Source: Patescibacteria group bacterium
GTDB lineage: Bacteria > Patescibacteriota > Patescibacteriia > UBA10025 > JAHIVO01
DNA: 64,000 nt
NCBI GenBank assembly: GCA_041660605.1
Contig: JBAZWB010000001.1
Span: 265,295 to 329,294 of the forward strand
Direction of reading: 5' to 3'
Part shown: in pieces, positions 19,050-44,376 of the stretch
Layout of the letters: each line of letters opens with the position of its first letter
Position numbering within the stretch: the first letter of the stretch is position 1
The notes under the pieces: model-generated
The model's input: the letters and a program-made list of their open reading frames with translations, nothing else
Told to the model about the DNA's origin: nothing
The model's database searches: none
Made by a program: the position numbers and the translations under genes

Positions 19050-20099
19050 CTAATTTTTTTGTTTCATTGCCAGCCCGGCGGCCACGGCCATTTGCGCGCC
19101 AAGTTCCGTCAATTCTTCTTTCAGCTCTGTGGGGTAGGAAATTTTTTTCCAGGGATCAGCCACCTCAGTTTCTATTTTCAGCGTTTCACTGATATAAGCG
19201 GTGAAATTTTTTAATTTGTTGGCTCCGCCCAGTATGATGATTTTTTTCACCGTATCCTGATAATCATGATGATAGCTGGTTATAATCCTCCTTATTTCCC
19301 TGATGACCATATTGTCTATGACGAAGGCCATGGCTTTAGCCACCGGATGGAGGAATTGCGCGCCGGTCGGTAGTCCAATGTCGTCGCGGAATTGCTTGGC
19401 GCGCTCTTCGCTGACATTCAGGGCATTGGCGATATTCAGGGCGATGGTCTCGCCTCCAACATCAATGTTTCTGGTTATGACCGGGATTGTTTTGGAAAAA
19501 AGGGCCATATTAGTATTGGTCGCGCCGATGTCCATCAATAGAATTGGCTCGTCATCGGTGATCAGCGAACGGCGCATGGCCGTAATTTCTGTTTCGGCGC
19601 CGATCAGGGTTAAATCGCACATTTTGAATATCTGCAAATAATTCTCTACCACGTCTTTTGGGGCAGCAGTCAGAATGATATTCAGCTTGTCGGCGGGCTC
19701 GGAGGCATTACGCGCAGGGATTATTTGCCAGCTCAGAGTCACCCTGTCTATCGGCAGCGGCACCATTTTTTTAGCTTCCCAGCGTATGGCTGAGGTTATT
19801 TCCTTGTCCGGCATTTTTGGCAGGGTGATGACGGCATTAAAAACGTTGAGTGCGGAAATCGCCACTACCGATCTGGTAGCGGTGGCTCTGGCTTTTAGCG
19901 TGAGTTCCTTCAGGAGGCCGGCTATCTTTTGCTGGTTTTGGGCCGTATCAAATCGTGTTATTGCCTGGTCCCTTTCAGCGATACCATAGGTCACCAGGCG
20001 GAAACTCTGTTTGTATCTTTCTAGCTCAACGATTTTAATGGCGGACGAGCCAAGATCGACTCCCAGGATTTTTGATTTTTTTTCACCGAAGATTGGCAT
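19050..20099 (-). CDS. pilM: type IV pilus assembly protein PilM (actin-like ATPase fold)
   Basis: 349-aa ORF with N-terminal ILGVDLGSSAIKIVEL and an actin/ASKHA fold, similar to PilM/FtsA-like proteins, placed next to pilT. Confidence 0.8.
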   Translation of the reverse strand: MPIFGEKKSKILGVDLGSSAIKIVELERYKQSFRLVTYGIAERDQAITRFDTAQNQQKIAGLLKELTLKARATATRSVVAISALNVFNAVITLPKMPDKEITSAIRWEAKKMVPLPIDRVTLSWQIIPARNASEPADKLNIILTAAPKDVVENYLQIFKMCDLTLIGAETEITAMRRSLITDDEPILLMDIGATNTNMALFSKTIPVITRNIDVGGETIALNIANALNVSEERAKQFRDDIGLPTGAQFLHPVAKAMAFVIDNMVIREIRRIITSYHHDYQDTVKKIIILGGANKLKNFTAYISETLKIETEVADPWKKISYPTELKEELTELGAQMAVAAGLAMKQKN

Positions 20100-20120
20100 G
20101 AGTTTAAATAAAAATATAAT

Positions 20121-21197
20121 TTACGCCCTGAGCATATAGCTCAGCTGCTGCGGATCGATCGCATATTCCAGAGCATCGTCAATCTGGACCTGGTTTGATT
20201 TCACCAATTCCGCCAGTGACCAGTCCAGAGAAACCATCCCTTCTTCACGCGAGGTTTGGATAATGTTATTTAGCTGATAAAGGGACCCTTCTTTTATCAA
20301 TGACCGGATGGGCGGAGTTGATGTCATTATTTCTGCCACCGCCACCTGGCCGCCGCCGGTGCGGGGTACGAGTTTCTGGCAGATGATGCCTTCCAGATTG
20401 GTTGAAAGCTGGTCCTTGATTTGCTGCTGTTCGTTTGAGGGAAAGCTGTCAATGATGGTTTTCAAAGTTTTGACCACCGTATCGGCTTCGATATCGGCAA
20501 TAACCAGCCGTCCGGAAGAGGAAATTTTTAAAACCTGCTCGATCACTTTTGACGAGGGGAGGTCGGAAACATAGACAATGTTAACGTCCTCCTGGGTAAG
20601 GTTGCTCAGAGCCTGTTCAAATGAAACCGCGTCGCGCCCTACTTCCCTTTGTTCAATAAAGCTTTTTTGGCCGGTGAAGATATGCTCAATCGGCTTTTCT
20701 ATCGATAAGATATAGGTGGAGGCATTTTTATTGATGTAGTCGATAATAGAAGATGAAGTGGTTGATTTTCCGGAACCAAACGCGCCGCTCACCAGCAGCA
20801 GGCCTTTATTTAGGCTGGCCAGTTTTATCAGCGGCTGGAGGGGCAACCCCAATTGATTCAGGGGGACTATCTGGTTGCTGATCAGCCGGAGATAGGCAGC
20901 CAGCGCGCCTTTTTGGAAAAATAAATTAATTCTAAATCTTTCCTGCTTGCCAAATTGATAGGTCAGCACTATTTCTCTGTTTTCCTGCAGGGTGTTTTTC
21001 TGGTCATTATCAAGCAGGGAGTCGATGAAGGTCTCCATAAAATCCTTGCTGATAATATTTTCGTTTTCCAGGGGGATCAGCTTGTTATCTATGCGGATGA
21101 TCGGCGGGCTGCCGACAGAGAGATGCAGGTCAGAGGCTTTTTGCCCGGCCACGGTATTGAGTATATTGTCTATCGCTAATTTATTTTGGGTATCCAT
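20121..21197 (-). CDS. pilT: type IV pilus retraction ATPase PilT-like
   Basis: 358-aa ORF with Walker A GAFGSGKSTT and an AxxA secretion-ATPase core. The length is typical of PilT. Confidence 0.8.
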   Translation of the reverse strand: MDTQNKLAIDNILNTVAGQKASDLHLSVGSPPIIRIDNKLIPLENENIISKDFMETFIDSLLDNDQKNTLQENREIVLTYQFGKQERFRINLFFQKGALAAYLRLISNQIVPLNQLGLPLQPLIKLASLNKGLLLVSGAFGSGKSTTSSSIIDYINKNASTYILSIEKPIEHIFTGQKSFIEQREVGRDAVSFEQALSNLTQEDVNIVYVSDLPSSKVIEQVLKISSSGRLVIADIEADTVVKTLKTIIDSFPSNEQQQIKDQLSTNLEGIICQKLVPRTGGGQVAVAEIMTSTPPIRSLIKEGSLYQLNNIIQTSREEGMVSLDWSLAELVKSNQVQIDDALEYAIDPQQLSYMLRA

Positions 21198-29718: not shown

Positions 29719-32700
29719 ATGGGAGGCAGAAATAAAAATAAATTCATTACGGGGGCGGTTGTAGGATTAATTTTCAGCTTAGCGCTGATAGCTATGGCTG
29801 TTTTTGTCCTGCCAAATGCCGTCTCCGCCCAGGCGACTATTAACAGCGAGCTAGGGACGACTTTTGGTTTGGGCACGGCGGGCCTGGAATCGACAGTAAT
29901 AAAGATCGTCCAGTGGGCGCTCGGCTTCCTCGGGCTGATAGCGGTGATCATGATCATCTACGGCGGCGTGGTTTGGATGACCGCGGCCGGCAACACTGAT
30001 AAGGTAGCTAAGGCCAAGAAAATAATCATCCGCGCGGTGATCGGGCTGGTGATTGTTCTCTTAGCCTGGGCGATCGTCATGTTTATCGTTGACAGGATAA
30101 ATAAAGCCACCGGTGGCGGCGGAGATTTTTGCGATCCTCATTATTTTGGACCAAATTGGCCGGCTGACGCGGAGGTACGCTCGGACGGCTGTGCCTATTG
30201 CAATGAAAGCGGTACCGGCTGGATAGTTATCCCTGGCTGCGTCACTTTGCCGGATACCGACACTTTCCGCGTCAAATGGGTGGATCCGACTGACGGCGAA
30301 CATGACGTGCCTTTGTGCAGCATCGTGCAGGCCAAGTTGAACGGTAAAGTTGTGCCCGCTTCCATCGCTGGTAATGTTGGGCTGTATGTTAACGGTGCCA
30401 CGGCTAAAGGTGGCGATGCGTGTCTTGCCAACAATGAATGCATGTCTGGCGTTTGCGATATTGGCGGCACTAACCAGTGCGTGGGCGATGAAGTCGCCGG
30501 CAACTGGCAGGTTTCACCTGACCAGACAATCATAGAATTTTTACCGGCTACCGATTATCTGGAGAATCAGTGGTACCGGGCGGAATTGAGGAGAAATACC
30601 CCAGGGAATCCGGTTATTATCCAGGAAGACGCCGCTGATCCGCGTGATTTCGTAACTAAAATATGGATGTTTACTACCGGCATTACGACTTTGGATGTGC
30701 CTCCGACCGTGACTACAATATATCCAGCTGATGGTGAAGATAAAATTTGTTTGAACACCGCCATCCAGTCAATATTTTCCAGTAAAATGCGGGCCGCTTC
30801 AATGAACGCCAGTACTATAAAATTGGCTGAGGCCGGGACAGGAGATTACGGAATTAACATTAACGATCATACAAGTAATTCTTTTTCCGGCCGTCCGGCC
30901 AAACTTTTAAACGCCGGTAAAGAGTATAATGTTACTTTAACTGCCGGAGACCCCGGGAATAATGATCCGAATAACGGTGTTATGGACGTTTGTCTGAATC
31001 ATCTTGATGGCGATGCGGATACTGTTGAAGAAGGCACGGCCGGTGGCGATAATTTCCTTGAAACGGTACCGCCAAGCTCCAATCCCACCTTTACGGATGC
31101 GCCCTGGAATTTCTTAGCTGATACTGACACTACCAATGATAAATGCATACCGGAAATAACCGACATTGTGCCGGCTAATGGCAAATATGATAGCACCGCG
31201 GTAGATATACAGGGCGTGAATTTTGGTATTATTGGTTTCACCTATTTTAATAAAGGAGTAATTAATGCAGGGAATTGTTTTGACGGGGGGGGATGGCCTA
31301 GATTAGAATGCGTCAACAGCTGGTCGGGCAATAATATAAACATTCACGTGCCTGGCGGTCCGATCAACGGCGGCCAGAAAGCAGTGCCGTATAACGGCGC
31401 GGCCGATGGGCCGGTATCCGTGGAAGTGGCTGGCAAAACCAGCAACAATTGGACTTTTGACGTAGCCAGCCCGCAAATATTAAAAGCCATCGGCTTTAAA
31501 AACAATCGCCACGGCGGTACTGACCAGTATGTTACCCTGATCAGCCGTTCTGATACTGACGGTGGTTTCGGTGATAATACAGGTACGGTGGTTTTCCGGA
31601 GTTTTCAGCCTCCCTACAATGTGGTTACTGCGCCTTTCCCTCCTGATCCGCCTTGTGACGCCTCCTGGGCTAATGACCAGGTGATTATTAAAGTACCTGA
31701 TCTGACAGCCACGCTAGGCGTTCCCGCTTGCCCGGTGGCCGGACCCGCTGACTGGGTAAGTTGCCTGAATACTCCTTCCATGGTGGGTATTCAGCTTATC
31801 AGGAACGGAGGTGATCGTAGCAATATAGTTAATTTTGTCTATACTAATGAAGAAGCCGGTCCGGGTTTGTGCGCCATTCAGCCGCAGCAATGCGGTACGG
31901 GCGGTGAGACCGTAACTGCGGTGGGCCAGAAATTTCTTGCTCAGACTCCTGCGAGCCGAGTGCATTTTTCCGCCATCCAAGCAGTAATAAATAGCTGGAC
32001 ATTGAACCTGGTGACCGGAGACAGCGCGCAGGTTACTGTGCCAAGCCTTGATAACGCTGAAGATTATCTGGTGACGGTTTCAAATTCCGTTGGCACAAGT
32101 AACCCCTTGCTCTTTGACGTACCGTGCGGCCTGATACCAAAAGTGGTGGAAGATTCCTCCTGCGAAAATTATTGCCAGCTTGATCCTACCCTTAAGGGCT
32201 GTACTGAAGACATAGACTGCGGCGTTTCCGGTCCCTGCGTCACCGGCATTTCCTCGCCAAATCCGTATAAAGGCAATACTGACGTCTGCGTCAATGTTAA
32301 CGCCGCGGCGTCTTTTAATACTCTGATGGACGACGCCATGCTGACTGACGGCAATCTGGTCTATCTGCAGAAATGCAATGATGATAATTGCTCGGATGTG
32401 GATCCGGCCAAGGTGGCAGGCGCTTTGTCGGTATTTATCATTGACCCCACTCACGAAGGCGTTGAGTTCAATCCGGCTGTTAACCTTGATCCCTCAACAA
32501 CATACCAGATGACTATCCAGAAAGAAGTGCAGAGCGAGGCTGGCGCGCACATGAATAATGATTACAAGTGGCATTTCAAAACTAAAGACAGCATTGAACC
32601 CTGCCCGGTGGAGAAAGTGGTAGTTGCTCCGAACAGCGCGATTTTATATAATCTTGGAGACACTCAGAATTATTCCAGCTTAGCCCAAGGTCCGAACTGC

Positions 32701-35700
32701 ACCATCTTAGATCCCAACGACTATACCTGGGCCTGGACTTCGGAGGATTTTGGAATTGCCAGTGTTCCGGTGCCCAGCAGCATAACGCGAAATGAAATCG
32801 CCACCGCTACCGGCCTAGGCACTACTTATATAAAGGCCAGCATTCCCGCGGAAAGCAAGAGCGGCCGGGGCAGGCTGAAAGTTGATCCGGAATCCTGCGC
32901 TTTTAATCCTGATCCTGGTTACTGTGCTAACCCCGGTGGCGGTGTAACCTGTCCAGGCAGCTGGTGCGATTTACTGGCTGACAAATGCATGCCGGTGATT
33001 ACTGAGCGATCCATACCGCCGGATATACCGCCGAAGGAAATCACTCCACCCCAGGGACCAGCGGGCACTACGGTTTCTATTGAAGGCTGCTGGTTTGGCA
33101 GTAAAACCGGTCAGGTGATTATTGACCAGGCAGCAACTTTTGAATGCAGTAATTCCTGGTCAAGTAATTTGATCGTGGCGACTACTGATCCCTTAATTCC
33201 TACTGGTAATAAGCCGGTGGAAGTATTGACAGCTTACGGCCGATGCAACGGCGGCGACAGAGACGGCCGGTTATGCACGGTGGTAGGAGAATGTCCCGGA
33301 GCCGCGTCATGCGATAAATTTTCCAATATGATTGACAGCGGTCAAAGCGGAGCGCTTAGTAAAAATTTTAATGTTACTGACAGATGTTCCGGATATTGCG
33401 ATCCTAACATCAGCCCGGCGGAATTTGCCAATGCTCCTTGCGTTGATGATAGTAATTGCGATAATGTCCCCCTCAGCTGCAAGAAAGTGCTTCCGACCGG
33501 CGGCATACCGGGTATTTGCCCGCCTTTACAGCCGTCTGCGGGACCGGAGCTGACGCATGTATATATTGAAGGCTTTAATCTTTTGCCTGATAACGCGCAG
33601 ACTGTAGATGATTTGGTTTATTATCCACGAGGTAAGTCAGACACTCGTGATGATATAATTTTTTCATATTTGGAAAAATGGACCGGTACGGCTATCGATA
33701 GAAGCCGTGTGCCGGTTGGCGCGGAATCCGGCGCGGTTAACGTGCTGGTGGACAACTGCCCCTCAAATTCTCTGCCTTATGCCGTGACCTGCACTAACAA
33801 CATCCAGTGCGGTACGGGCTGCTGCGCTGATCCCGGCACGGGCCAGAAGATGTGCCTGCCTTTTGATCCATATTGTCTGTCTGGTACCATGCAGCCATGC
33901 CAGATAGAAGAAAATACCGACACTCCGGAATCTCCCGAAAATCCCAACTGCACTTCCGGCCAGATCTGGAATCCGGGTAATTATATGTGTATCAGTACCA
34001 CAGGCGATACTTCTCATGAATTTCCGGCACCGCCAGAAGATGCCACGCATCTATTCGGTACCGACTGCCGCGTGTGCTGCGACGCCAATCCGCCGCAGGT
34101 GTCAGCTTCAGGCTTGACCTGCCGCGCGGACAAAGGCGACTGCAGCGGCACCGAGCGCGGATTGTATTGCGGCTGTGACCCTGCAATTCCCGGCCAATGC
34201 GGAGCGGGCTTCGGCTGCAGCGCCAAAGACACCTGCTGCTATCCGGAACCCGTCATTGATCATGTCATACCTGATCCGTTAGCGGGCAATCTGCTCTGCA
34301 CCAACGTGGTTATCCGGTATTACTTCAATGAAGTCATGGATACGGAGACCATGAATACCGCCAATATTATAGTAACTGATGGCACAGATCCAATCGCCGG
34401 AAAAATAGATATCCATAAAAATAAAAAGGGTTTTGGTTTTGTCGCGGATAAACCGTACACACCCGGCCAGCAGGTGCATATCGAGGTAACGACCAATGTC
34501 AAGAATAAATACGGCGTGGGCATGGCGGGTTCTGATTCCAGGATTTGGACTATTGATCCGGCCGCGTCCCTCTGCGCCATTAACCAGATTGATTTTACGA
34601 TCATTACCACCGGCGCGCCGCCGACTTATGATCCGCCGGACGTGTTTCGCTGCGCCACGGATAATTGCAGCGGAGACATGGATCCCGCGCCGGGTACGGG
34701 CAACGAGCATGGCATCACGGCCTATGCCTATGATAAAAGAGGCCTGGAAGTGGCAGCTACCTATCAGTGGCAAGAAGAAGATGACGCGAATGTTATTGCC
34801 ATTGACCAATTGGCCGTAGGCACTGATAACGCTATCACCGCGCAACCCAATAATGGCAAAGCTAACATAGTAGTGACGGCTACCGAGCAGTACGTTGGCG
34901 ATTCGAAACTAACCGATAAGGCCAGAGTCAGCGTGATGCTGTGCGAAAAACCCTGGCCCAATCCGTATGCGCCGGAAATGGATCAGTTTCCTTTTGAGGA
35001 TTCTGACCGCAATCCGCCGGCTACCTGGAAACCGGACACCATTTTCCATACAAATAATTTTATTGCTAATTACAGCATCTGGTATTGCCGCGATTCCGGC
35101 AATCCGCCTTTATTAGAGCGCACTGATCAGGTAACAGTCCGTGACGGCTCGCCGACGGATCCGGACATAGTCAAGGAATACTTTTTCCTCAGGCCTGGCA
35201 CCAGTACGGACGGCATCGGCATTATTGTCGCCGACAATCCTGATAATAAATCTCCGGAGCAATGGTATCGGGATAAATTCGGCGCGGCCGCACCAGCGCC
35301 CCAGAGTCTGACAGTGGACGGCTATCCGGCGGTCAGAGCCGGCCGTACCGTTTATGTCGGCGTGCCGAACCTGGTAGGCGGAGCATTCCATCAATATATA
35401 TATTTATTATCTCATGACCAGGAGGCTTCAGATGAAACGCTGGATATCTACAACCGCCTGCTGGCCAATTGGGAGTTTAATGTTAATGTTGATCCGGCAC
35501 AAAAGGCAGCTTTGCAGCGCGATTTGCAGAGAATCAATAGCTTGGAGGAAATTTACGGCAAAATGCTGGCTTATAAGAATAAAAATGGCTTTTTCCCCAA
35601 ACTTGAAGGCGGTTCGTATATCCAGCATTTGTCCAATTCCAAATGGCCTTCCTGGCAGGAGACGCTGGGGTCCAGCATTAACAGTCTGGGCTTTATACCG

Positions 35701-38700
35701 CATCAGGCGCCGTTCCTGGAAAAACTACGCGGTTTATTTGTTAAAAACGCGGTCGCCCAATCCGGCCTGGCCGTTGATCCGTTGAATAAATTTGATTTGC
35801 CCGACCCCTCGCTGCCCCCGCAGTGCCTGGAGGACAACGGATTTAACCAGGATACCTGCTGGAATGAAACAAAACATTTGTATGAATGTCCGGCCAATTC
35901 AAATATTTACCAATATATGGTGGATGCCAATGGCGACAATGCCGCGCTCTATGCCCGGATGGAATACAGCGGTGCCGATAGTTTTGCAAATTATTTTGGG
36001 GGCGATCCTTGTACCGGCATAACCGGCGCCACCTGCAACTGCTTTAATTATGTATTGGGCGTAACCGGCAATCTGGCTGATCACGAAGGTCCGGAAATCC
36101 AGGGGGTGGACGCCTTGGGGGCCGGTGTGAACTGGATCAGCAGCACCCGGCCACTGGGCGTGTTAGTCGTTGACAAGCCAGACCTTAATCCCAGCGGCGT
36201 CAACCGGGTGGAATTTTTCGTTGACGGCATTAGGAAATTCACGGACAGCGACGGCACTGGTCCGGGCTGGTCCTGGGATTTCGTTTCCACGCAGTATGCC
36301 GACGGCGACCATAAGATTTCTGTGACTGCCTACGATAATGTTGGTAACTGGACCACGAAAAATTATGACATTAAAATCGACAATTCCAGCGGAGCGGATA
36401 CTACCGATCCCTTCATCGCCATCGCCCGGCCGGGAAACGGCGCTTCGGTCAGCGGCAAAGTCATCATTGAAGCGCAGGCCAGCGATAACCAGGTGCTGGC
36501 GCAGGTGCAGATTTCAGTTGAGGGCGCTTCGGCTAACTGGGTCTGTCCTGGCGGCGGTTCAAGCATGACCTGTACGACAGCCATCCCGAATCACTGGAAC
36601 ACCGCAGCACTTGACGCTGATGGCAAATATATCTATCCCAATGGCGAATATACCATCAACGCCACGGCCACAGACGCAGCCGGCAACAGCCGCACTGCCA
36701 GCATAAAAGTGAAAGTAGCCAACAGCGATTATACCGCACCATCCGTTGTTTTGACCGCGATATATAACGGCGGTCCGGATCATTGGAATAATGGAGATGT
36801 CATACCTGGCGCTATTGCGTACGCCCAGGGTCCGGGCGAGGTGTGGGTCTGGGTGATACCTACTGACGACCAGGGGGCTGACCAGTTCTACAAGCCCGGT
36901 CGCGTGAAATTCTACGTTGATGGCATCTATCGCGCTGACGGGTCAAATGATAATGGCGACCAGGTGTGGGAATGGGCGCCATGGAACACCCTGGAATACT
37001 CCAACGGACTGCATGAACTGACCGTCTATGTTTATGACGACGCGGGCAATATGGCCAGCGATACCTGGTATATTACGCTGAATAACGCTCAGTCAGACAT
37101 GGAACCGCCGGTAGTTAATTTTAGAAATGCCAAATCCAATCCAACAGGGAGAACGCTTTTAAATGGCCAGCCAGCTACGCAAATCATATATATTGATGCC
37201 AGCGCTTCAGATAATATCGGCGTTACAAAAGTTTATTTTTATCGCGATTATATATTGCGATCCGAGGTCATTGTTCCGGATCCAATGACAGGCTACTCCT
37301 GGATGGTTGATACTAATGCAATTTCGCCGGGTTGGCATACTTTTCAGGTGGACGCGGAAGACGCGGCGGGAAACCGCAGCGACGCCATTGAGATACGCCT
37401 GAATATCGGCGGCGGCGGCGCTCCAATTTGCGGCGACGGCATCATTACCAACTTTACTGTTCCGCCGGAACAGTGCGAGCTGATCGGCTACACCCCGCCG
37501 CCTGATAATCAGCCTATTTACAGCATGAACGGCGAGACCTGTAAAACATTGGGCTATGGCTGCGGCACCCTGGGATGCAATCCGCCCCTCTCCGCTAATG
37601 AGTGCCAGTTTGATGTTAGCCAATGCAAAAACTCCGTTTGCGGTGACGGTAAGATCGAGTGCGGCGAAACCTGTGAAAGTGTATCGGACTGCCCGGCCGC
37701 GCCTAATGCTTGTTCTACTATTAATTGCAATAGTTGCGACTGCTCTTACGATCAGAATTGCACCAACGCGCCGGGGTGCGAGCCTGGTACCCTTACCTGG
37801 TGCGCCAACTGCAACCACTGCAACAATAAGATCAAGGATTGCGATGAAACAACCACGGATTGTGGCGGCGCCATGTGCCCGACCTGCGGATGCACGCCAG
37901 GAAACCAGCGATGTACAGTAACCTCACAGACGCAGGTCTGCAATAACCTCGGCGTCTGGGTAAATGAAGCGCAAACCCTGCCTACCTGTACTGCCCCGCC
38001 TAGTTATCCTTTCTGGCAGGGCGATTGTAATTTGGGCTCAACATCAGGTTGCTATTCTGGCACTGTTTGTAAAACCTCGGGAGCTACCGATGCTCACTGC
38101 GAAAGTAATCAGGCCATACAATGTACTGCAGCCTGCCAGACTGGTTGGTCACTGGCTTATAACCAGTGTTGCGTCACCCAGCGATGTAATACCGGCCCAC
38201 CTCTACACACGGAGAAATTTGTAAGCGGTTCCTGGGTTGATGAACCCCAGGGTACACCAATTTGCAGTATGGCCAATGGGGCCAATTGGGATGGAAATTG
38301 TGTTATGGGTAATAGCTGCTACAACACTACAATCGGTTGTATGATGACTGGCGGCGGAACAGATGCTAAGTGCGTGAATACAAGCGTCAACCCATTCCAA
38401 TGCGTGGCCGCTTGCCAGAGTTCATTTCTAGCCGCGTATAACCAATGCTGCGCCGTATGCGTTGACGGCACAAAGCAGGATTGCGGCGCTACGAATACTG
38501 ATGTTGGCGAATGCAATATCGGCGAGCAGACCTGCGTCAGCGGCGCCTGGGGACCCTGTACCGGCGAAATTCCTTCGTCGCCGGAAATTTGCACTGGCGG
38601 CAAGGATGAGGACTGCGACGGCGCTATTGATGCTGCGGATACGGATTGCGCCATGCAGTGCAATCAAGCCTGCAACCCGCCCAGTATAAATTGCGCCAGC

Positions 38701-39771
38701 CCCTTGATCTGCAGCAGCGGTTTATGCCGCAACAGCGCCTGCCCTCTCCAAACTGATTGTATTTGCCCTACTATTCTATATACTATTACGCTGACCTGGA
38801 GCGGGACCACGGATCTTGACCTCAATTTATTGAGAAGCGATCTCAAGCGCTGGTACTGGGGGCACCCTGACATTGATGAAGGCATAGATTGGAATAATAT
38901 TAACTCTAATACGGAGGTTATAGAAATAACTGCAGAACAAAGCAGTTATCCTAACGATTTTCAAATACTCATACAGAATAGCGCCGTACCAACAGCGATG
39001 ATCCCCAGCGGTACGAGGGTGGATATTATGGATAATATACGCAGTTTGACTTATACTTATAATTCTCCGGATATGTGCCGCAGCAACAGCAGTCCTATCT
39101 GGCAGGTCGGTGAATTTAATTTCAGTGGTGGCGTTACACCAAATGTCAGCAATGCCTATATGCCCGCGCCTTTCCCGGCCACTTATCCCAGCGTGCCATA
39201 TCAGCAAGCTTCAGGCTCTTGCTGCGCTAATATAACCCAATGTCAGTCAGGGCTCTGCTGTAATGGTGGCTCGCCAGGTGTCTGCGGCGCCTGCTCCTCT
39301 TGTTTTGCTAACAATGGTTCCTGCGAAGTGGCACCGGGTTATTCCTGTGATGAGGTGAAGGACTATAGTGATCCGGATAATAAAGACTGCAAACAGAATT
39401 TTATAGATTGCAAAACTTGGTGTAGCGATAATTATTGCGACAGCATGGGAAATTGCACTGGATTTCTGGTCAGGATGACATATCCGGTTGCGACATATCA
39501 ATATGAACCGGGGAAATGCTATGATCCGTGGAGAAGCGGTGACCCTCAGGATCAATGTTATATTAGTATGGCTTGTGGCGGATATGCTTTTTATGGGCCG
39601 AATAATGAAGCGACGCAATGTTGCCACCCAGCCTCGACTAATCCACCTGGAACTCCGCTTGGTTATGGATGTTATTGCGGACGCGATGTACCGGTTGGCC
39701 CGCCTGTGGATCCAAATCCAGAATGTTTAATCGCCAGTTGCAATGGTCCGAACCTATATGTTTGCGAATAA
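29719..39771 (+). CDS. giant (3350 aa) Cys-rich cell-surface protein; N-terminal VirB2/TrbC pilin-like membrane domain, central Ig/beta-rich region, C-terminal Cys-rich repeats
   Basis: The single uninterrupted ORF is GC-richer than its neighbours. The N-terminus has a signal-anchor plus two hydrophobic helices split by a short basic loop (IYGGVVWMTAAGNTDKVAKAKKIIIRAVIGLVIVL). The C-terminal ~700 aa hold CGDG cysteine-rich repeats, CDGxDxDCDG-type motifs and a ~91-aa Cys-rich unit repeated about 2.5 times (DNA ~37900-38480). Antisense ORFs inside the gene are spurious. Confidence 0.9.
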   Translation: MGGRNKNKFITGAVVGLIFSLALIAMAVFVLPNAVSAQATINSELGTTFGLGTAGLESTVIKIVQWALGFLGLIAVIMIIYGGVVWMTAAGNTDKVAKAKKIIIRAVIGLVIVLLAWAIVMFIVDRINKATGGGGDFCDPHYFGPNWPADAEVRSDGCAYCNESGTGWIVIPGCVTLPDTDTFRVKWVDPTDGEHDVPLCSIVQAKLNGKVVPASIAGNVGLYVNGATAKGGDACLANNECMSGVCDIGGTNQCVGDEVAGNWQVSPDQTIIEFLPATDYLENQWYRAELRRNTPGNPVIIQEDAADPRDFVTKIWMFTTGITTLDVPPTVTTIYPADGEDKICLNTAIQSIFSSKMRAASMNASTIKLAEAGTGDYGININDHTSNSFSGRPAKLLNAGKEYNVTLTAGDPGNNDPNNGVMDVCLNHLDGDADTVEEGTAGGDNFLETVPPSSNPTFTDAPWNFLADTDTTNDKCIPEITDIVPANGKYDSTAVDIQGVNFGIIGFTYFNKGVINAGNCFDGGGWPRLECVNSWSGNNINIHVPGGPINGGQKAVPYNGAADGPVSVEVAGKTSNNWTFDVASPQILKAIGFKNNRHGGTDQYVTLISRSDTDGGFGDNTGTVVFRSFQPPYNVVTAPFPPDPPCDASWANDQVIIKVPDLTATLGVPACPVAGPADWVSCLNTPSMVGIQLIRNGGDRSNIVNFVYTNEEAGPGLCAIQPQQCGTGGETVTAVGQKFLAQTPASRVHFSAIQAVINSWTLNLVTGDSAQVTVPSLDNAEDYLVTVSNSVGTSNPLLFDVPCGLIPKVVEDSSCENYCQLDPTLKGCTEDIDCGVSGPCVTGISSPNPYKGNTDVCVNVNAAASFNTLMDDAMLTDGNLVYLQKCNDDNCSDVDPAKVAGALSVFIIDPTHEGVEFNPAVNLDPSTTYQMTIQKEVQSEAGAHMNNDYKWHFKTKDSIEPCPVEKVVVAPNSAILYNLGDTQNYSSLAQGPNCTILDPNDYTWAWTSEDFGIASVPVPSSITRNEIATATGLGTTYIKASIPAESKSGRGRLKVDPESCAFNPDPGYCANPGGGVTCPGSWCDLLADKCMPVITERSIPPDIPPKEITPPQGPAGTTVSIEGCWFGSKTGQVIIDQAATFECSNSWSSNLIVATTDPLIPTGNKPVEVLTAYGRCNGGDRDGRLCTVVGECPGAASCDKFSNMIDSGQSGALSKNFNVTDRCSGYCDPNISPAEFANAPCVDDSNCDNVPLSCKKVLPTGGIPGICPPLQPSAGPELTHVYIEGFNLLPDNAQTVDDLVYYPRGKSDTRDDIIFSYLEKWTGTAIDRSRVPVGAESGAVNVLVDNCPSNSLPYAVTCTNNIQCGTGCCADPGTGQKMCLPFDPYCLSGTMQPCQIEENTDTPESPENPNCTSGQIWNPGNYMCISTTGDTSHEFPAPPEDATHLFGTDCRVCCDANPPQVSASGLTCRADKGDCSGTERGLYCGCDPAIPGQCGAGFGCSAKDTCCYPEPVIDHVIPDPLAGNLLCTNVVIRYYFNEVMDTETMNTANIIVTDGTDPIAGKIDIHKNKKGFGFVADKPYTPGQQVHIEVTTNVKNKYGVGMAGSDSRIWTIDPAASLCAINQIDFTIITTGAPPTYDPPDVFRCATDNCSGDMDPAPGTGNEHGITAYAYDKRGLEVAATYQWQEEDDANVIAIDQLAVGTDNAITAQPNNGKANIVVTATEQYVGDSKLTDKARVSVMLCEKPWPNPYAPEMDQFPFEDSDRNPPATWKPDTIFHTNNFIANYSIWYCRDSGNPPLLERTDQVTVRDGSPTDPDIVKEYFFLRPGTSTDGIGIIVADNPDNKSPEQWYRDKFGAAAPAPQSLTVDGYPAVRAGRTVYVGVPNLVGGAFHQYIYLLSHDQEASDETLDIYNRLLANWEFNVNVDPAQKAALQRDLQRINSLEEIYGKMLAYKNKNGFFPKLEGGSYIQHLSNSKWPSWQETLGSSINSLGFIPHQAPFLEKLRGLFVKNAVAQSGLAVDPLNKFDLPDPSLPPQCLEDNGFNQDTCWNETKHLYECPANSNIYQYMVDANGDNAALYARMEYSGADSFANYFGGDPCTGITGATCNCFNYVLGVTGNLADHEGPEIQGVDALGAGVNWISSTRPLGVLVVDKPDLNPSGVNRVEFFVDGIRKFTDSDGTGPGWSWDFVSTQYADGDHKISVTAYDNVGNWTTKNYDIKIDNSSGADTTDPFIAIARPGNGASVSGKVIIEAQASDNQVLAQVQISVEGASANWVCPGGGSSMTCTTAIPNHWNTAALDADGKYIYPNGEYTINATATDAAGNSRTASIKVKVANSDYTAPSVVLTAIYNGGPDHWNNGDVIPGAIAYAQGPGEVWVWVIPTDDQGADQFYKPGRVKFYVDGIYRADGSNDNGDQVWEWAPWNTLEYSNGLHELTVYVYDDAGNMASDTWYITLNNAQSDMEPPVVNFRNAKSNPTGRTLLNGQPATQIIYIDASASDNIGVTKVYFYRDYILRSEVIVPDPMTGYSWMVDTNAISPGWHTFQVDAEDAAGNRSDAIEIRLNIGGGGAPICGDGIITNFTVPPEQCELIGYTPPPDNQPIYSMNGETCKTLGYGCGTLGCNPPLSANECQFDVSQCKNSVCGDGKIECGETCESVSDCPAAPNACSTINCNSCDCSYDQNCTNAPGCEPGTLTWCANCNHCNNKIKDCDETTTDCGGAMCPTCGCTPGNQRCTVTSQTQVCNNLGVWVNEAQTLPTCTAPPSYPFWQGDCNLGSTSGCYSGTVCKTSGATDAHCESNQAIQCTAACQTGWSLAYNQCCVTQRCNTGPPLHTEKFVSGSWVDEPQGTPICSMANGANWDGNCVMGNSCYNTTIGCMMTGGGTDAKCVNTSVNPFQCVAACQSSFLAAYNQCCAVCVDGTKQDCGATNTDVGECNIGEQTCVSGAWGPCTGEIPSSPEICTGGKDEDCDGAIDAADTDCAMQCNQACNPPSINCASPLICSSGLCRNSACPLQTDCICPTILYTITLTWSGTTDLDLNLLRSDLKRWYWGHPDIDEGIDWNNINSNTEVIEITAEQSSYPNDFQILIQNSAVPTAMIPSGTRVDIMDNIRSLTYTYNSPDMCRSNSSPIWQVGEFNFSGGVTPNVSNAYMPAPFPATYPSVPYQQASGSCCANITQCQSGLCCNGGSPGVCGACSSCFANNGSCEVAPGYSCDEVKDYSDPDNKDCKQNFIDCKTWCSDNYCDSMGNCTGFLVRMTYPVATYQYEPGKCYDPWRSGDPQDQCYISMACGGYAFYGPNNEATQCCHPASTNPPGTPLGYGCYCGRDVPVGPPVDPNPECLIASCNGPNLYVCE

Positions 39772-39800: not shown

Positions 39801-40343
39801 ATGACACAACAAAACATTCCATCAGAGCAGAATGAACAAAAGCAGAAGCCTATTTATCTATGGTTTTTAATGGGTTTGCTTGTCTTGGCCTTGCTTGGCG
39901 GCGGCGGTTATTTGTACTATAAATATGCCAATAAGCCAAATGATAACGCTAATAAAGCTAATGTGAATGGGGCGGTAGTTGCGGAAAAGCACCTTTTAAC
40001 CGCCGAGGACAAGGAGCAATACGGCATCCAGGCCAATCTCAACGGTGAAATTACATATACTAATGTTAACGGAACTCTGATACCCAGTATTGTCATAGAT
40101 CCAAACTCACGTCCGCTTGATACTGATGGCGACCGGCTATCTGATGAAGAGGAAGCCACCCAAAAAACAGATCCCAATAATCCCGATACCGATGGCGACC
40201 TGATATATGACGGCGATGAGGTGTTGGTCTGGAAAACTGATCCCGCTAAGGCCGATACTGACGAGGACGGTTTTGATGACGGTGCGGAGGTCAAAGGAGG
40301 CTACAATCCTCTGGGTACCGGCCTGTTGAATACCGCCCAGTAG
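39801..40343 (+). CDS. membrane-anchored protein with thrombospondin-type-3-like Ca-binding repeats (paralog 1 of 3)
   Basis: The track ORF 39669..40343 starts inside the giant gene. The likely start is the M of MTQQNIPSEQ...KPIYLWFLMGLLVLALLGGGGYLYY (single TM). Repeats follow (DTDGDRLSDEEE, DPNNPDTDGDLIYDGDE, DPAKADTDEDGFDDGAE) and the protein ends GGYNPLGTGLL. Confidence 0.7.
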   Translation: MTQQNIPSEQNEQKQKPIYLWFLMGLLVLALLGGGGYLYYKYANKPNDNANKANVNGAVVAEKHLLTAEDKEQYGIQANLNGEITYTNVNGTLIPSIVIDPNSRPLDTDGDRLSDEEEATQKTDPNNPDTDGDLIYDGDEVLVWKTDPAKADTDEDGFDDGAEVKGGYNPLGTGLLNTAQ

Positions 40344-40425
40344 CATTTTTGATCCTCTAGAATGTAGTATAATATTAAAGGCGGGTAGTGCCGCTTTAAA
40401 TTTTAAACGGGAAAAATAGCATAAA

Positions 40426-41019
40426 ATGCCAAATAATAAACCGATAGAAGATATTTTTGAGGAAGTGGATAAAAGCAAAACACCAAAAAACGGTAAAATA
40501 AAGAACGGAGCAAGAAAACCGAAGCTGGCCCCGCTCGCGCCCCAGTCATTGCCGCCCCTTCAGCCAGAATCCAGGAATACGAAATTGCCGGTGAAAATTA
40601 TTATTTTGGTAATAATCATAATAGTGCTGGCAGGCGGCGGGTATTTTGTTTATAATTATCTGGCTAATCGCGCTGAGGATGATCCGGTAAATGCCGCTAA
40701 CAACAGCGCCGTTCAGCCGGCGACTAACCAGCCGGTGAATTCAGCAGTGCCGGCGATTAATGCCAATACTGCTCAGGATACGGATGGCGACGGGTTGACG
40801 GATGCCGAAGAGAAAGACCTGGGCACCGATCCAAAAAATAAAGACACGGATAATGACGGCCTCTTTGACAGGGAAGAGGTCAAGGTTTATAAAACCGATC
40901 CTGATAATCCGGACACCGACGGTGACGGCATTAAGGACGGCCAGGAAGTTAAGAATGGGTACAATCCGAATGGCCCGGGGAAGTTATTGGATCTGAATTC
41001 AGCTAAAAATAATATTTAA
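40426..41019 (+). CDS. membrane-anchored protein with thrombospondin-type-3-like Ca-binding repeats (paralog 2 of 3)
   Basis: 197-aa ORF with the TM anchor IIILVIIIIVLAGGGYFVYNY. Repeats DTDGDGLTDAEEKDLGTDPKNKDTDNDGLFDREE...DPDNPDTDGDGIKDGQE follow, ending GYNPNGPGKL. Confidence 0.75.
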   Translation: MPNNKPIEDIFEEVDKSKTPKNGKIKNGARKPKLAPLAPQSLPPLQPESRNTKLPVKIIILVIIIIVLAGGGYFVYNYLANRAEDDPVNAANNSAVQPATNQPVNSAVPAINANTAQDTDGDGLTDAEEKDLGTDPKNKDTDNDGLFDREEVKVYKTDPDNPDTDGDGIKDGQEVKNGYNPNGPGKLLDLNSAKNNI

Positions 41020-41032
41020 AAATTTCAATAAT

Positions 41033-42193
41033 ATGGCAGTGCAGGAAAAAAATAATGAAGCGCGTCCGGCAGAACCGGTAAAGCAAGTACGCATCCATAC
41101 CATGCCCAGCAAGTTTTATCTGGACGAAAACAAGTCGGGCAGCGGTAAGAATATTTTTTTAGTGGTTTTTCTCATAATTTTGGCTGTTCTGGTGCTTGGC
41201 GGCGGAGGGTATTTCGCCTATACTAGCTTTTATCAGAATAAAAATCAGAACTCAAATGCCAATTCATTGGCCAATGAAAATGAAGAGGGTGACTTGAATG
41301 ACACCAATAGTTCAGCGAATGCCAATGGCAATAAAAATGCCAATACAAACGGCTCTAATACAAATAATGCCAATAGAACTAATGTAAATGCGGTAGATAT
41401 TAATTCGCTGAATATTTTCAATAATTTGAACCAAAATACCAATACCGGCAATTTTAACATCAATACGGTGGTTAGCAGCGCTGACGCGGATTTAGACGGC
41501 CTGTCGGACGTAGAAGAGCCGATTTACAGTACCAAGATCTCTTCAGCCGATTCTGACGGTGATGGGTTTAGTGACGGCCAGGAAGTCATAAACGGCTATA
41601 ATCCCAACGGTACTGGCAAGCTGGAGCTGAATGCCGGCGTTCTGCGCTATACCGATACAGACGAGAAGTATTCGTTGCTATATCCGAAAACCTGGGTTGT
41701 CAGCGATGACAACCAGACGTCCAGCGGCAAGATTTTTAGCGCTAACGGGCAATTCGTAACCATCAGCGTGGAGCTGAATGCCGCGAAATTATCAGCCCGC
41801 GACTGGTACCTGACCAAGTCGCCAGGAATTGATTCCTCCCGCATTCAGTCAGTCACTAACTGGGACGCGACTTTGGCTGGCGTCAAAAGCATTGACGGGC
41901 TGACCGTTTATTACACGAAGAACGACCAGACATTCATTATCAGCTACAATATAAATATTCTTACTCAGGCTGATTATCTGACCACCTTCGCAATGATGTA
42001 TAAAAGTTTTACGCTGGTGACGGCTAATTTTGTAAATAGTAACGCCAATTCAAATTCTAATACCAGTACGAATTTTAATTTTAATACGAATATTAATACC
42101 AATACAAACAGGAATACAAACTCAAATTTAAATTCTAACGCCAATACAAATAGAAATACAAATTCAAACTCAAATTCAACAAATCACCTATAA
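41033..42193 (+). CDS. membrane-anchored protein with thrombospondin-type-3-like Ca-binding repeats plus extra C-terminal domain and Asn-rich tails (paralog 3 of 3)
   Basis: 386-aa ORF with the TM anchor FLVVFLIILAVLVLGGGGYFAY. It has Asn-rich low-complexity segments, the repeats DADLDGLSDVEE...DSDGDGFSDGQEVINGYNPNGTGKL, and a ~150-aa C-terminal domain. Confidence 0.75.
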   Translation: MAVQEKNNEARPAEPVKQVRIHTMPSKFYLDENKSGSGKNIFLVVFLIILAVLVLGGGGYFAYTSFYQNKNQNSNANSLANENEEGDLNDTNSSANANGNKNANTNGSNTNNANRTNVNAVDINSLNIFNNLNQNTNTGNFNINTVVSSADADLDGLSDVEEPIYSTKISSADSDGDGFSDGQEVINGYNPNGTGKLELNAGVLRYTDTDEKYSLLYPKTWVVSDDNQTSSGKIFSANGQFVTISVELNAAKLSARDWYLTKSPGIDSSRIQSVTNWDATLAGVKSIDGLTVYYTKNDQTFIISYNINILTQADYLTTFAMMYKSFTLVTANFVNSNANSNSNTSTNFNFNTNINTNTNRNTNSNLNSNANTNRNTNSNSNSTNHL

Positions 42194-42633
42194 TGAAGAT
42201 CTGGATCAACAAAGAGACGGGAATCAGAGCAGAGACCGGCTTTTTCAAAAAATTATTCAGGTTGATCGGCCGGCAGTTTCCCCGTTATTCAGGAGCGGAA
42301 ATTTCCGTCGCCCTGGTTAGCGCCAGGACAATAAAAAAATTAAATAAAAAGTACAGGCATAAAAATAAAGTAACGGATGTTCTCTCCTTTGCCGAAAGGG
42401 AATCAAAATACAAAATTGCACCCAGACAATATTTAGGCGAGATAGTGATTTCTATGCCGCAGGCGAGAGAGCAGGCGAGAGAGCATAAACATGCCTTACG
42501 TCGTGAACTGGTGATTTTACTTGTCCACAGTTTTTTACATCTGGTGGGGTTCGATCATGCCACGGACAAGCAGGAAAAAATTATGGACAAGGAGGCCCGG
42601 AAAGTAATGTTGATATACGAAAAAAATTTATAA
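42193..42633 (+). CDS. ybeY: rRNA maturation endoribonuclease YbeY
   Basis: 146-aa ORF with the zinc-binding motif HSFLHLVGFDH. Confidence 0.9.
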   Translation: MKIWINKETGIRAETGFFKKLFRLIGRQFPRYSGAEISVALVSARTIKKLNKKYRHKNKVTDVLSFAERESKYKIAPRQYLGEIVISMPQAREQAREHKHALRRELVILLVHSFLHLVGFDHATDKQEKIMDKEARKVMLIYEKNL

Positions 42634-42644
42634 ATTACTAATAT

Positions 42645-43019
42645 ATGCCAATTTTGGATTTACGGATGTTGGGGAAAAGCTTTCGTTACGCAGCCAGGGG
42701 GTTTTGGTATGTGTTTAAAAACGAACAAAATATCCGGCTTCATATTTTTGCCAGCGCTTTGGTGATAATTTTAATGGTATATTTCGGCGTTTCCCTCTGG
42801 CAAGCCATCATACTCTTCCTGGTCATGGCCTGGGTCGTAGTACTGGAACTGATCAATACAATTTTTGAGAAAATGGTGGATATTTTGCAACCGCGGATAC
42901 ATTTTTACGCTCAGGTGATCAAGGATGTCATGGCCGCCACCGTGCTGGTATCATCAATCGGGGCCGTAATCATTGGGATTTTGATTTTTGGACCTTATAT
43001 TTGGACGGCCAAGCCCTAA
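42645..43019 (+). CDS. dgkA: diacylglycerol kinase / undecaprenol kinase (DgkA family)
   Basis: 124-aa ORF with three TM helices. Motifs NEQNIRLH and ELINTAIE-like (LELINTIFEKMVD) are typical of prokaryotic DAGK. Confidence 0.85.
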   Translation: MPILDLRMLGKSFRYAARGFWYVFKNEQNIRLHIFASALVIILMVYFGVSLWQAIILFLVMAWVVVLELINTIFEKMVDILQPRIHFYAQVIKDVMAATVLVSSIGAVIIGILIFGPYIWTAKP

Positions 43020-43122: not shown

Positions 43123-44376
43123 ATGTCGAAAGAGCAAATAATAACCGGTTTGGACATCGGCTCAACTACGGTCAGGGTAGTGGTGGGGCAGGTTAATCCG
43201 CAGGATAAAAAAATTCACATACTGGGCGCCTCTGAAAACAACGCCGAAGGCATCAATAAAGGTTCGATTACCAGCATTGAAGACGCCGTTTCTTCCATTT
43301 CCGGAGCTTTGGAGAAAGTTGAGCGTATGACCGGCCTGCCGGTAGAGCACGTTTTCGTGGGCATCAACGGCAGCCATATCACTTCCCAGGATTCACATGG
43401 CGTAATTGCCGTTTCGAAATCAGACGGAGAGATAAAGGAGGACGACATTGAGAGGGTGATGGAAGCGGCACAAGCGGTGGCTACTCCCCCTAACTACGAA
43501 ATTTTGCATGTCATCCCGCGGAGCTTCACGGTGGATAACCAAAAAGGGATAAAAGACCCTATCGGTATGACCGGCATCAGGCTCGAGGTGGATGCTCAGA
43601 TTATCCAGGGCCTCTCCTCGCAAATAAAAAATCTGACCAAATCCATATACCGGACCGGCATTGACATTGACGATCTGGTCCTGGGCGTACTCGCTGCCTC
43701 TGAATCAGTGCTGACCAAGAAACAGAAAGACCTGGGCGTAGCTCTCCTGAATATCGGCGGCTCGACTACCAGCATGCTGGTTTTCGAAGAGGGAGACGTA
43801 CTGCATACCGCCATTCTGCCGATCGGCTCCAGTCACATTACCAACGATATCGCCATCGGTTTGCGTACTTCTATCGATTTAGCCGAAAAGATCAAGATCG
43901 AATACGGCTCCGCTCTGCCAGAGGAAATAAATAAGCGCGATGAGATAAATTTAGCCGAGATTGATTCCCGCGAAGAAGGAGTGGTGTCACAGAAGCACAT
44001 TGCTGAGATAGTCGAAGCGCGCTGCGAGGAAATTTTCAAAATGGCAGAAAAAGAACTTCAAAAAATAGACCGTTCCGGTTTATTGCCGGCGGGAGTGATA
44101 CTCACCGGCGGCGGTGTCAAGCTGCCAGGACTGATCGAAGTCGCCAAGAGAGAATTCAAATTGCCCGCATCGCTGGGCTATCCGTTGGACCTGGGTTCGA
44201 CTGCGGTGGACAAGGCAAATGATTTAAGTTTTACTACTGCCATCGGCTTGCTGTACTGGGGCGCGGGATTCGTCAATAAGGGGGGATCTCGAGGGGGGAT
44301 TACAATGCCGAAATTCACCTCTGTCGGTGAGGCAACAAATAAAATGAAAAAGTGGTTCAAGTCTTTAATACCTTAA
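43123..44376 (+). CDS. ftsA: cell division protein FtsA
   Basis: 417-aa actin-fold protein (GLDIGSTTVRVVVGQV...) located immediately upstream of ftsZ. Confidence 0.9.
   Translation: MSKEQIITGLDIGSTTVRVVVGQVNPQDKKIHILGASENNAEGINKGSITSIEDAVSSISGALEKVERMTGLPVEHVFVGINGSHITSQDSHGVIAVSKSDGEIKEDDIERVMEAAQAVATPPNYEILHVIPRSFTVDNQKGIKDPIGMTGIRLEVDAQIIQGLSSQIKNLTKSIYRTGIDIDDLVLGVLAASESVLTKKQKDLGVALLNIGGSTTSMLVFEEGDVLHTAILPIGSSHITNDIAIGLRTSIDLAEKIKIEYGSALPEEINKRDEINLAEIDSREEGVVSQKHIAEIVEARCEEIFKMAEKELQKIDRSGLLPAGVILTGGGVKLPGLIEVAKREFKLPASLGYPLDLGSTAVDKANDLSFTTAIGLLYWGAGFVNKGGSRGGITMPKFTSVGEATNKMKKWFKSLIP

Follow-up and report, generated by a model that had tools for sequence, protein, structure and literature searches.

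Thrombospondin type 3 repeat membrane proteins encoded beside a giant surface protein gene in Patescibacteria

Repeats of the thrombospondin type 3 (TSP3) kind are known from several described systems. In Staphylococcus aureus, the giant LPXTG-type biofilm protein Bap carries a tandem of DxDxDG motifs that were found experimentally to sense Ca2+ (PMC7785521). In Myxococcus xanthus, the TSP3/COMP-like repeats of CglD confer Ca2+-dependent adhesion, working with a larger adhesion machinery (10.1101/2023.10.19.562135). Eukaryotic thrombospondin/COMP type 3 repeats use a DxDxDGxxDxxD/E logic of Ca2+ binding together with disulfide Cys and a C-terminal lectin-like domain, and the OmpA-like TSP3 proteins, which are diderm lipoproteins or outer-membrane proteins, carry a peptidoglycan-binding OmpA_C domain. 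Here we describe three TSP3 genes, called A, B and C, which lie 3' of the gene for a 3350-aa giant surface protein in a member of the Patescibacteria (candidate phyla radiation, CPR), a large and mostly uncultivated part of bacterial diversity whose envelope and host attachment are poorly understood. The window, that is the whole stretch of DNA analysed, comprises 64,000 nt of a metagenome-assembled genome (GCA_041660605.1, contig JBAZWB010000001.1, positions 265,295 to 329,294, forward strand).

Two widely conserved and undescribed protein families were defined from B and C. Their genes are nearly always paired and stand between a pilin-anchored giant gene and ybeY-dgkA-ftsA-ftsZ. The proteins are tentatively viewed as Ca2+-binding envelope tethers or scaffolds that form a conserved three-part surface module with the giant protein. 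Full-text literature searches turned up neither the two families nor the module, and in the available part of a survey of Patescibacteria type IV secretion systems (T4SS) and VirB2-like pilins neither giant fusions nor TSP3 neighbours are mentioned. Homologs bear the database names "hypothetical protein", "thrombospondin type 3 repeat-containing protein" or "binary toxin-like calcium binding domain-containing protein". The TSP3 repeat itself is of a known kind; what is new is the bitopic architecture, the fusion of TSP3 repeats to a PsbP-like domain, the division into two paired orthogroups that each have their own cytoplasmic peptide, and a nearly universal linkage to a pilin-anchored giant gene.

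The three proteins and their repeats

A sequence-only reading of this DNA had placed three tandem genes with transmembrane (TM) segments and Asp repeats directly after the giant gene, and three plus-strand open reading frames (ORFs) of this description were found there. Their features, as predicted, are as follows.

39801-40343, + strand: A, 180 aa from the ATG at 39801; short N-terminal tail without a conserved peptide motif
39852-39920, + strand: TM segment of A, residues ~18-40, membrane anchor
40119-40328, + strand: three TSP3 repeats of A, residues 107-176 (PF18884, 48 bits, three stretches)
40426-41019, + strand: B, 197 aa, B-type protein, locus tag WCV50_02190
40447-40458, + strand: EDIF peptide in the cytoplasmic tail of B, residues 8-11, conserved in homologs
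40585-40665, + strand: TM helix of B, residues 54-80, followed by a low-complexity linker
40777-40986, + strand: three TSP3 repeats of B, residues 118-187, followed by a short C-terminal helix
41033-42193, + strand: C, 386 aa, C-type protein, locus tag WCV50_02185
41093-41119, + strand: cytoplasmic IHTMPSKFY peptide of C, residues 21-29
41153-41233, + strand: TM helix of C, residues 41-67 (AlphaFold2 model)
Residues 68-148 of C, + strand: Asn-rich disordered linker
41483-41620, + strand: two TSP3 repeats of C, residues 151-196
41621-42028, + strand: PsbP/Mog1-like domain of C, residues ~197-332, ~135 aa (fold match)
42029-42190, + strand: Asn-rich tail of C, residues 333-386

All three proteins pass the gathering cut-off of the bacterial TSP3 repeat family PF18884 (TSP3_bac), which is 25 bits for the whole-protein score: A with 48 bits (E 1.1e-12), B with 72.1 bits (E 3.1e-20) and C with 25.3 bits (E 1.3e-5). 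Matches were also obtained for 31 of 50 C-type homologs. A and B each have three DxDxD(G)xxDxxE units and C has two, and the eight cores are visible at the DNA level (repeat families D3 and D4). Both the period of 22-23 aa and the consensus, in which DxDxDGxxDxxE is followed by G-T-D-P, are those of TSP3_bac. The sequence-only reading had likened the repeats to TSP type 3, dockerin or EF-hand-like Ca2+ loops. The first of these comparisons held, through the PF18884 match and through superposition on the Bap tandem; the dockerin and EF-hand identities, together with that of eukaryotic TSP_3, were dropped, as A, B and C gave no match to Pfam Dockerin_1, EF-hand or TSP_3 at E<=1. Weak precomputed EF-hand matches occur only in some homologs. 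The same reading had set apart a conserved C-terminal GYNP motif. The ending GYNP(L/N)G(T/P)G(L/K)L is indeed shared by A, B and C, but when the repeats are placed side by side (compare DTDGDGLTDAEEKDLGTDPKNK with DTDGDGIKDGQEVKNGYNPNGP) GYNPxGxG is seen to be the diverged G-T-D-P tail of the last TSP3 repeat and no separate motif.

An AlphaFold2 model of B, built from 40 homologs, consists of a TM helix (54-80), a disordered linker and a TSP3 module (~115-190) with one short helix per repeat, the module having a predicted local distance difference test (pLDDT) score of 97-98 over residues 120-190. When superposed on the tandem of Ca2+-binding DxDxDG motifs in S. aureus Bap, the model shows a root-mean-square deviation of 1.0 Å over 43 columns and 49% identity. 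This tandem, EF-hand-like motifs 2 and 3 of Bap region B (PDB 7C7R, 7C7U), is the sole solved structure that matches B by both sequence (E 4.9e-5) and fold, and it is matched over two repeats only. No amyloid-forming region like that of the giant Bap was identified in A, B and C. Given the TSP3_bac match and the Ca2+-responsive Bap tandem, A, B and C probably bind Ca2+ by homology.

The other TSP3 systems resemble A, B and C mainly at the repeats. OmpA-like TSP3 lipoproteins (P0073, P0074, P0095) carry repeats of this family that are 62-64% identical in the repeat region; as in C, the repeats follow a membrane anchor and precede a binding domain at the C-terminus. They differ in that A, B and C are predicted bitopic inner-membrane proteins with zero Cys, lack OmpA_C (PF00691 was absent in the Pfam scan), and C ends in a PsbP-like domain. 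Intra-repeat disulfides in OmpA-type TSP3 repeats were reportedly described by Dai et al. in 2017. CglD and MtsD of M. xanthus likewise carry surface DxDxDG repeats, and their NCBIfam models (NF033765 and NF047639) gave repeat-level matches with E values of 1.7e-9 to 9e-8; the scores of 36.1, 32.0 and 30.7 bits cover repeats only and stand against cut-offs of 400 and 800. In contrast to CglD/MtsD, A, B and C have no VWA or EGF-like domain, are ~10 times smaller and are TM-anchored instead of being lipoproteins. With eukaryotic thrombospondin/COMP they share the Ca2+-binding logic, and they lack its TSP_3 match (E<=1), disulfide Cys and lectin-like domain.

In pairwise alignment, each of the three proteins shows a K/R-rich N-terminal tail followed by one hydrophobic helix, and this order points to single-pass (bitopic) membrane proteins with a predicted N-in/C-out topology. 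The helices carry the motif L(G/A)GGGY(F/L)xY, as LLGGGGYLYY in A, VLAGGGYFVY in B and VLGGGGYFAY in C. The earlier description of a TM segment that ends in GGGGY was right as to its presence in all three proteins, but in the AlphaFold models the motif sits within the helix and not at its end. A GGG or GxG[YFW] motif was found in only 10 of 70 B-type and 14 of 75 C-type proteins, with a GG pair being common. Judged by these counts, GGGGY is conserved locally only and is not a family hallmark. At the DNA level the three copies of the motif in the window are only 71-74% identical, which rules out gene conversion as the source of the shared motif and indicates that the motif is maintained without it.

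For C, an AlphaFold2 model from 50 homologs was obtained, with Asn-rich disorder at 68-148 and 333-386 and one rigid unit at 150-332 (pLDDT >93). This agrees with the Asn-rich stretches and the extra domain of ~150 aa noted earlier, the domain now being delimited to ~135 aa at the end of the rigid unit. According to the model, the domain has a PsbP/Mog1-type alpha/beta sandwich fold. Foldseek against the PDB returned CyanoP (2lnj, E 1.7e-5), PsbP, PsbP-like subunits, BT_1490, Apa and Mog1p, with probabilities of 0.99-1.0 and TMt of 0.45-0.56 across matches. At the sequence level the signal is weak. C itself scores 17.1 bits against Pfam PsbP (PF01789; gathering cut-off 23.5), six of 50 C-type members match PsbP at E<=0.01, and a distant C-type homolog, L039, reaches 29.6 bits against PsbP_2 (PF18933; cut-off 27). 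The likeness to the PsbP/CyanoP/Mog1 superfamily is therefore one of fold (Foldseek probability 1.0) and of these weak Pfam matches; it differs in an identity of just 11-17%, in a non-photosynthetic organism, and in being fused to a TM anchor and TSP3 repeats.

With the C domain alone as query, a word-indexed search for homologs gave no match, which reflects a limit of the method; an exhaustive HMMER search later placed the domain in 695 clusters (50% identity), and it is C-terminal or nearly so in all 150 of these that were listed. MakA/NheA, suggested by a weak PDB sequence match (E ~0.07), was rejected in favour of the PsbP fold. By analogy, a role as a generic binding module may be proposed for the domain and nothing more specific. 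The tail of C (42033-42194, + strand) is an 18-nt periodic Asn-codon repeat that encodes NxNxNx, and in C-type orthologs the Asn-rich tails are conserved in length and not in sequence. Distant C-type homologs in L039 (7809-9914) and L048 (5708-8122) have an extra beta-rich insert between TM helix and TSP3 repeats, as well as a tandem C-terminal repeat of ~45 aa (GRPDGTLIKYPDQPGIYLI..KRAFASGEIFEKLGFKWEEVIEIP) with no Pfam match.

Two orthogroups in a conserved gene block

The sequence-only reading took A, B and C for three tandem paralogs. All three carry TSP3 repeats, but when the 161 TSP3 ORFs of the collected loci were compared all against all, they separated differently. Top-five matches of C-type proteins stayed within their class in 373 of 375 cases and those of B-type proteins in 331 of 350, which shows that B and C represent two old, distinct orthogroups and no recent duplicates. 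A is a lineage-restricted extra copy. Its single close ortholog is that in L011 (51-58% identity by best local alignment, varying with query direction), and third copies at the position of A, falling into several small lineage-specific groups, were found in 15 of 88 other loci.

B-type proteins have ~200 aa, or ~300 aa where the TSP3 module is duplicated. Their N-terminal cytoplasmic peptide reads xEDIFaExD, with E8, D9, I10 and F11 (nearly) invariant in 40 homologs, and EDIF is present in 50 of the 70 B-type orthologs taken from loci. C-type proteins have 320-800 aa and carry IhTMPxKFy ~12-18 residues N-terminal of the TM helix. Within the window these two peptides occur in B and C alone. P0031, which consists of a zinc ribbon, a TM segment and TSP3, was rejected as an ortholog, its context being unlinked and archaeal-like.

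To place the genes in context, ~90 loci were gathered from homolog look-ups and from a scan of species-representative genomes. The scan used a 15-sequence alignment, a 50-sequence alignment being too diverse; counts were made by tblastn and ORF analysis, and informative loci represent different species. All loci are from Patescibacteria, and the named records are Kerfeld-, Falkow-, Buchanan-, Magasanik-, Komeili-, Uhr- and Jacksonbacteria, lineages which we take to belong to GTDB class ABY1. Of 88 loci, 80 have a B-type gene immediately 5' of C (median gap 15 nt) and 82 have YbeY 3' of C, followed by DgkA, FtsA and FtsZ. The order giant-(extra)-B-C holds in 68 of 69 informative loci, a count that includes L064, where the upstream giant gene is split into three ORFs; homologs are thus not scattered away from giant genes, a pattern that would have spoken against the association proposed earlier. 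Where at least 3 kb of upstream sequence is available, 67 of 68 loci show either an ORF that reaches 1000 aa or a long one truncated where the contig ends. Among the complete upstream ORFs the median is 2036 aa and the maximum 3099 aa, and 64 of the 67 are detectably similar to the giant protein of the window. In independent look-ups, Pfam T4SS_pilin was found at the N-terminus of the upstream large protein wherever this was looked up. All parts of the module (a large plus-strand ORF, a B-type gene, a C-type gene and, as usual, ybeY-dgkA) are present in the window, where the flanking genes are as follows.

29719-39771, + strand: giant surface protein, 3350 aa, with a signal-peptide-like segment at its start
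Residues 59-123 of the giant, + strand: VirB2-like T4SS_pilin membrane hairpin (PF18895, Pfam)
After the hairpin, + strand: Big_5, Big_7, Big_13, TIG and HYR Ig-like domains of the giant, with a Cys-rich C-terminal part
42193-42633, + strand: YbeY, directly 3' of C
42645-43019, + strand: diacylglycerol kinase (DgkA), 3' of YbeY
43123-44376: FtsA, two genes downstream

A Pfam scan of ~23 ORFs at 5.7-46.3 kb detected no other T4SS gene such as VirB4, so the VirB2-like pilin fold of the giant protein seems to be used as a membrane anchor. The giant stop codon at 39771 is separated from A by 29 nt, A from B by 82 nt and B from C by 13 nt. An alternative start of A at 39669, which would bring the ORF into overlap with the giant gene, is unlikely; in L011 the ortholog begins like the short form. 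The TAA stop of C and the ATG of YbeY share one base (TAATG, nt 42191-42195; CTATAATG), as they also do in L001. The overlap points to translational coupling between C and ybeY-dgkA and makes it probable that YbeY and DgkA are co-transcribed with C. The two genes form the conserved context of A, B and C; any role in their function is putative.

The triad is part of a syntenic block of ~20 kb with the order GT2, signal peptidase, HisRS, HIT, S21, YqeY, giant, B, C, YbeY, DgkA, FtsA, FtsZ. Rearrangements of this block are informative. L007 and L090 have another upstream flank (RelA/SpoT) and retain giant-B-C-YbeY-DgkA. In L039 and L048 the downstream flank consists of MreC/MreD/PBP2-like genes, named from N-terminal sequences only, and giant-(B)-C is kept. 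In L059, B-C is followed by RsmI, MetRS and ribosomal protein genes. Breakpoints therefore lie between YqeY and giant (L007, L090) and between C and YbeY (L035, L039, L048, L059, L078), with one between giant and B and zero between B and C. These breakpoints, which flank the triad on both sides, favour giant-B-C as a functional unit, on the strength of a few rearrangement events.

Possible functions of the module

In the tether or scaffold model introduced above, each of the proteins would present a small Ca2+-binding TSP3 head on a disordered Asn/Thr-rich stalk, whose 40-90 residues would be long enough for crossing a wall. The model resembles what is known of OmpA-type proteins, which set TSP3 repeats beside a binding domain, of CglD, which supports an adhesion complex when Ca2+ is present, and of Bap as a Ca2+ sensor. 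Ca2+ would lock the repeats into a rigid acidic knob, and the knob, together with the PsbP-like domain of C, might hold or organise the membrane-proximal giant protein or the surrounding wall or surface layer. The Gly-rich faces of the TM helices may let the anchors pack together, and EDIF and IHTMPxKFY may tie the B-C pair to some cytoplasmic partner; contact of B and C with the giant, packing through the Gly face and the cytoplasmic partner are speculative. If Ca2+-dependent tethering of the giant is true, the heads (~70 aa in B, ~180 aa in C) would provide a small, expressible handle on how these bacteria build their surface. If it is false, B and C would still be core envelope proteins of a class-level lineage, annotated as hypothetical.

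Several points weigh against the tether model. Ca2+ binding is deduced solely from the conservation of motifs, and the repeats of A, B and C have no Cys, unlike eukaryotic and OmpA-type TSP3 repeats. The giant protein has no TSP3-binding or cohesin-like domain recognisable by Pfam (for cohesin, none at E<=1e-3), and its proposed contact with B and C is itself conjecture. In L078, inspected manually, the 9.7 kb upstream of B-C contain no large ORF. Since the whole block is syntenic, the giant-B-C adjacency may be inherited gene order and is by itself no proof of partnership. The same facts can be read as showing that B and C are independent Ca2+-binding envelope proteins, concerned with wall or cation organisation, which stand next to the giant by ancestral block order. 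That the block is conserved whole from signal peptidase/HisRS to FtsA/FtsZ, that C and YbeY share one base, C being probably co-transcribed with ybeY-dgkA instead of belonging to a separate adhesin operon, and that L078 retains the pair without a giant gene are all consistent with this explanation. The distribution of breakpoints, on either side of the triad and with just one inside it, argues in the other direction, and on balance we regard independence as possible and somewhat doubtful. Docking of the repeats as dockerins into cohesin-like modules of the giant, a form of the Ca-dependent docking proposed by the sequence-only reading, is far more remote. The duplicated Ca2+ loops with short helices look superficially dockerin-like, but the search results for Dockerin_1, EF-hand and cohesin were negative at the thresholds given and the period and consensus are those of TSP3_bac, so that hardly any credence is left to it.

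A function tied to the divisome or cytoskeleton was also considered. B and C share with FtsN and PilN, in architecture only, a short conserved N-terminal peptide, a TM helix, a disordered linker, a C-terminal globular head and a gene near ftsA. FtsA and FtsZ follow two genes downstream in nearly all loci, MreC/MreD/PBP2-like genes (again from N-terminal sequences only) follow in L035, L039 and L048, and the window has a PilM without an adjacent PilN. The N-terminal peptides might then sit on FtsA or PilM while the heads would read the wall, or organise it, where the cell divides. The evidence for this is the neighbourhood and a loose resemblance of IHTMP to INLLP, the peptide by which PilN binds PilM. 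Neither sequence homology to FtsN or PilN nor a SPOR or PilN domain was seen in B and C, and binding by the peptides is putative. EDIF was rejected as a mimic of the FtsZ C-terminal peptide, which it does not resemble (LEIPAFIRK in this genome), and the identities MapZ and FliL were rejected because their NCBIfam matches, mostly to the TM segment, reach 12-15 bits against cut-offs of 131-700. We consider such FtsN- or PilN-like proteins improbable. A variant in which B and C form a trans-membrane coupling pair, with the peptides docking on FtsA or the PilN-less PilM, both taken as actin-like ATPases, and the Ca2+-loaded TSP3 and PsbP-like heads gripping the VirB2-anchored giant, would link the host-contact apparatus at the surface of these ultra-small bacteria to the cytoskeleton or division machinery; drawn from the PilN-PilM analogy, it is likewise improbable. 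Finally, a Bap-like sensor or switch, in which DxDxDG occupancy toggles states such as self-association and thereby regulates surface behaviour, would fit the finding that, among solved structures, only the Ca2+-sensing tandem of Bap matches by sequence and fold. B, however, offers no further ectodomain on which a switch could act, amyloidogenic regions were not identified, and the PsbP-like domain that accompanies the repeats in C suggests binding, which makes a switch unlikely. Among these readings we return to the tether and scaffold model as a working proposal.

Further observations on the locus

The 82-nt spacer between A and B (40344-40425, + strand) contains a TATAAT box and a small hairpin (GCGG-GTAGTG-CCGC, then TTTAAATTTT), and A may be split from B-C-ybeY here by a weak terminator or by an internal promoter. 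Neither was called by a consensus scan, whose promoter and terminator counts were not above those of shuffled sequence.

The junction between the giant and TSP3 genes varies among sub-lineages. In one of them (L013, L063, L067, L071, L075, L080) a conserved ORF of ~94-113 aa lies between the two. In another (L001, L008-L010, L012) a separate ORF of ~500 aa is found at the junction, with Big_7 in L001, and the corresponding region may be fused to the giant gene in the window.

Elsewhere in the window, PilM (19050-20099) and a T2SSE-type ATPase adjoin each other at 19050-21197 (- strand). PilM is followed by no PilN or PilO ORF, and no ORF with an INLLP-type N-terminus occurs anywhere in the window. 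An 808-aa protein (8891-11317, - strand) has a single Pfam match at E<=1e-5, a spermine/spermidine-synthase domain at residues 520-642.

Some database records carry unexpected taxon labels. L019, L021, L022, L025, other 'binchicken' loci and P0062/P0122 are labelled 'uncultured Gammaproteobacteria' or 'Candidatus Geothermarchaeota archaeon'. These labels look wrong, as the records carry the giant-B-C-YbeY-DgkA-FtsA-FtsZ block typical of Patescibacteria.

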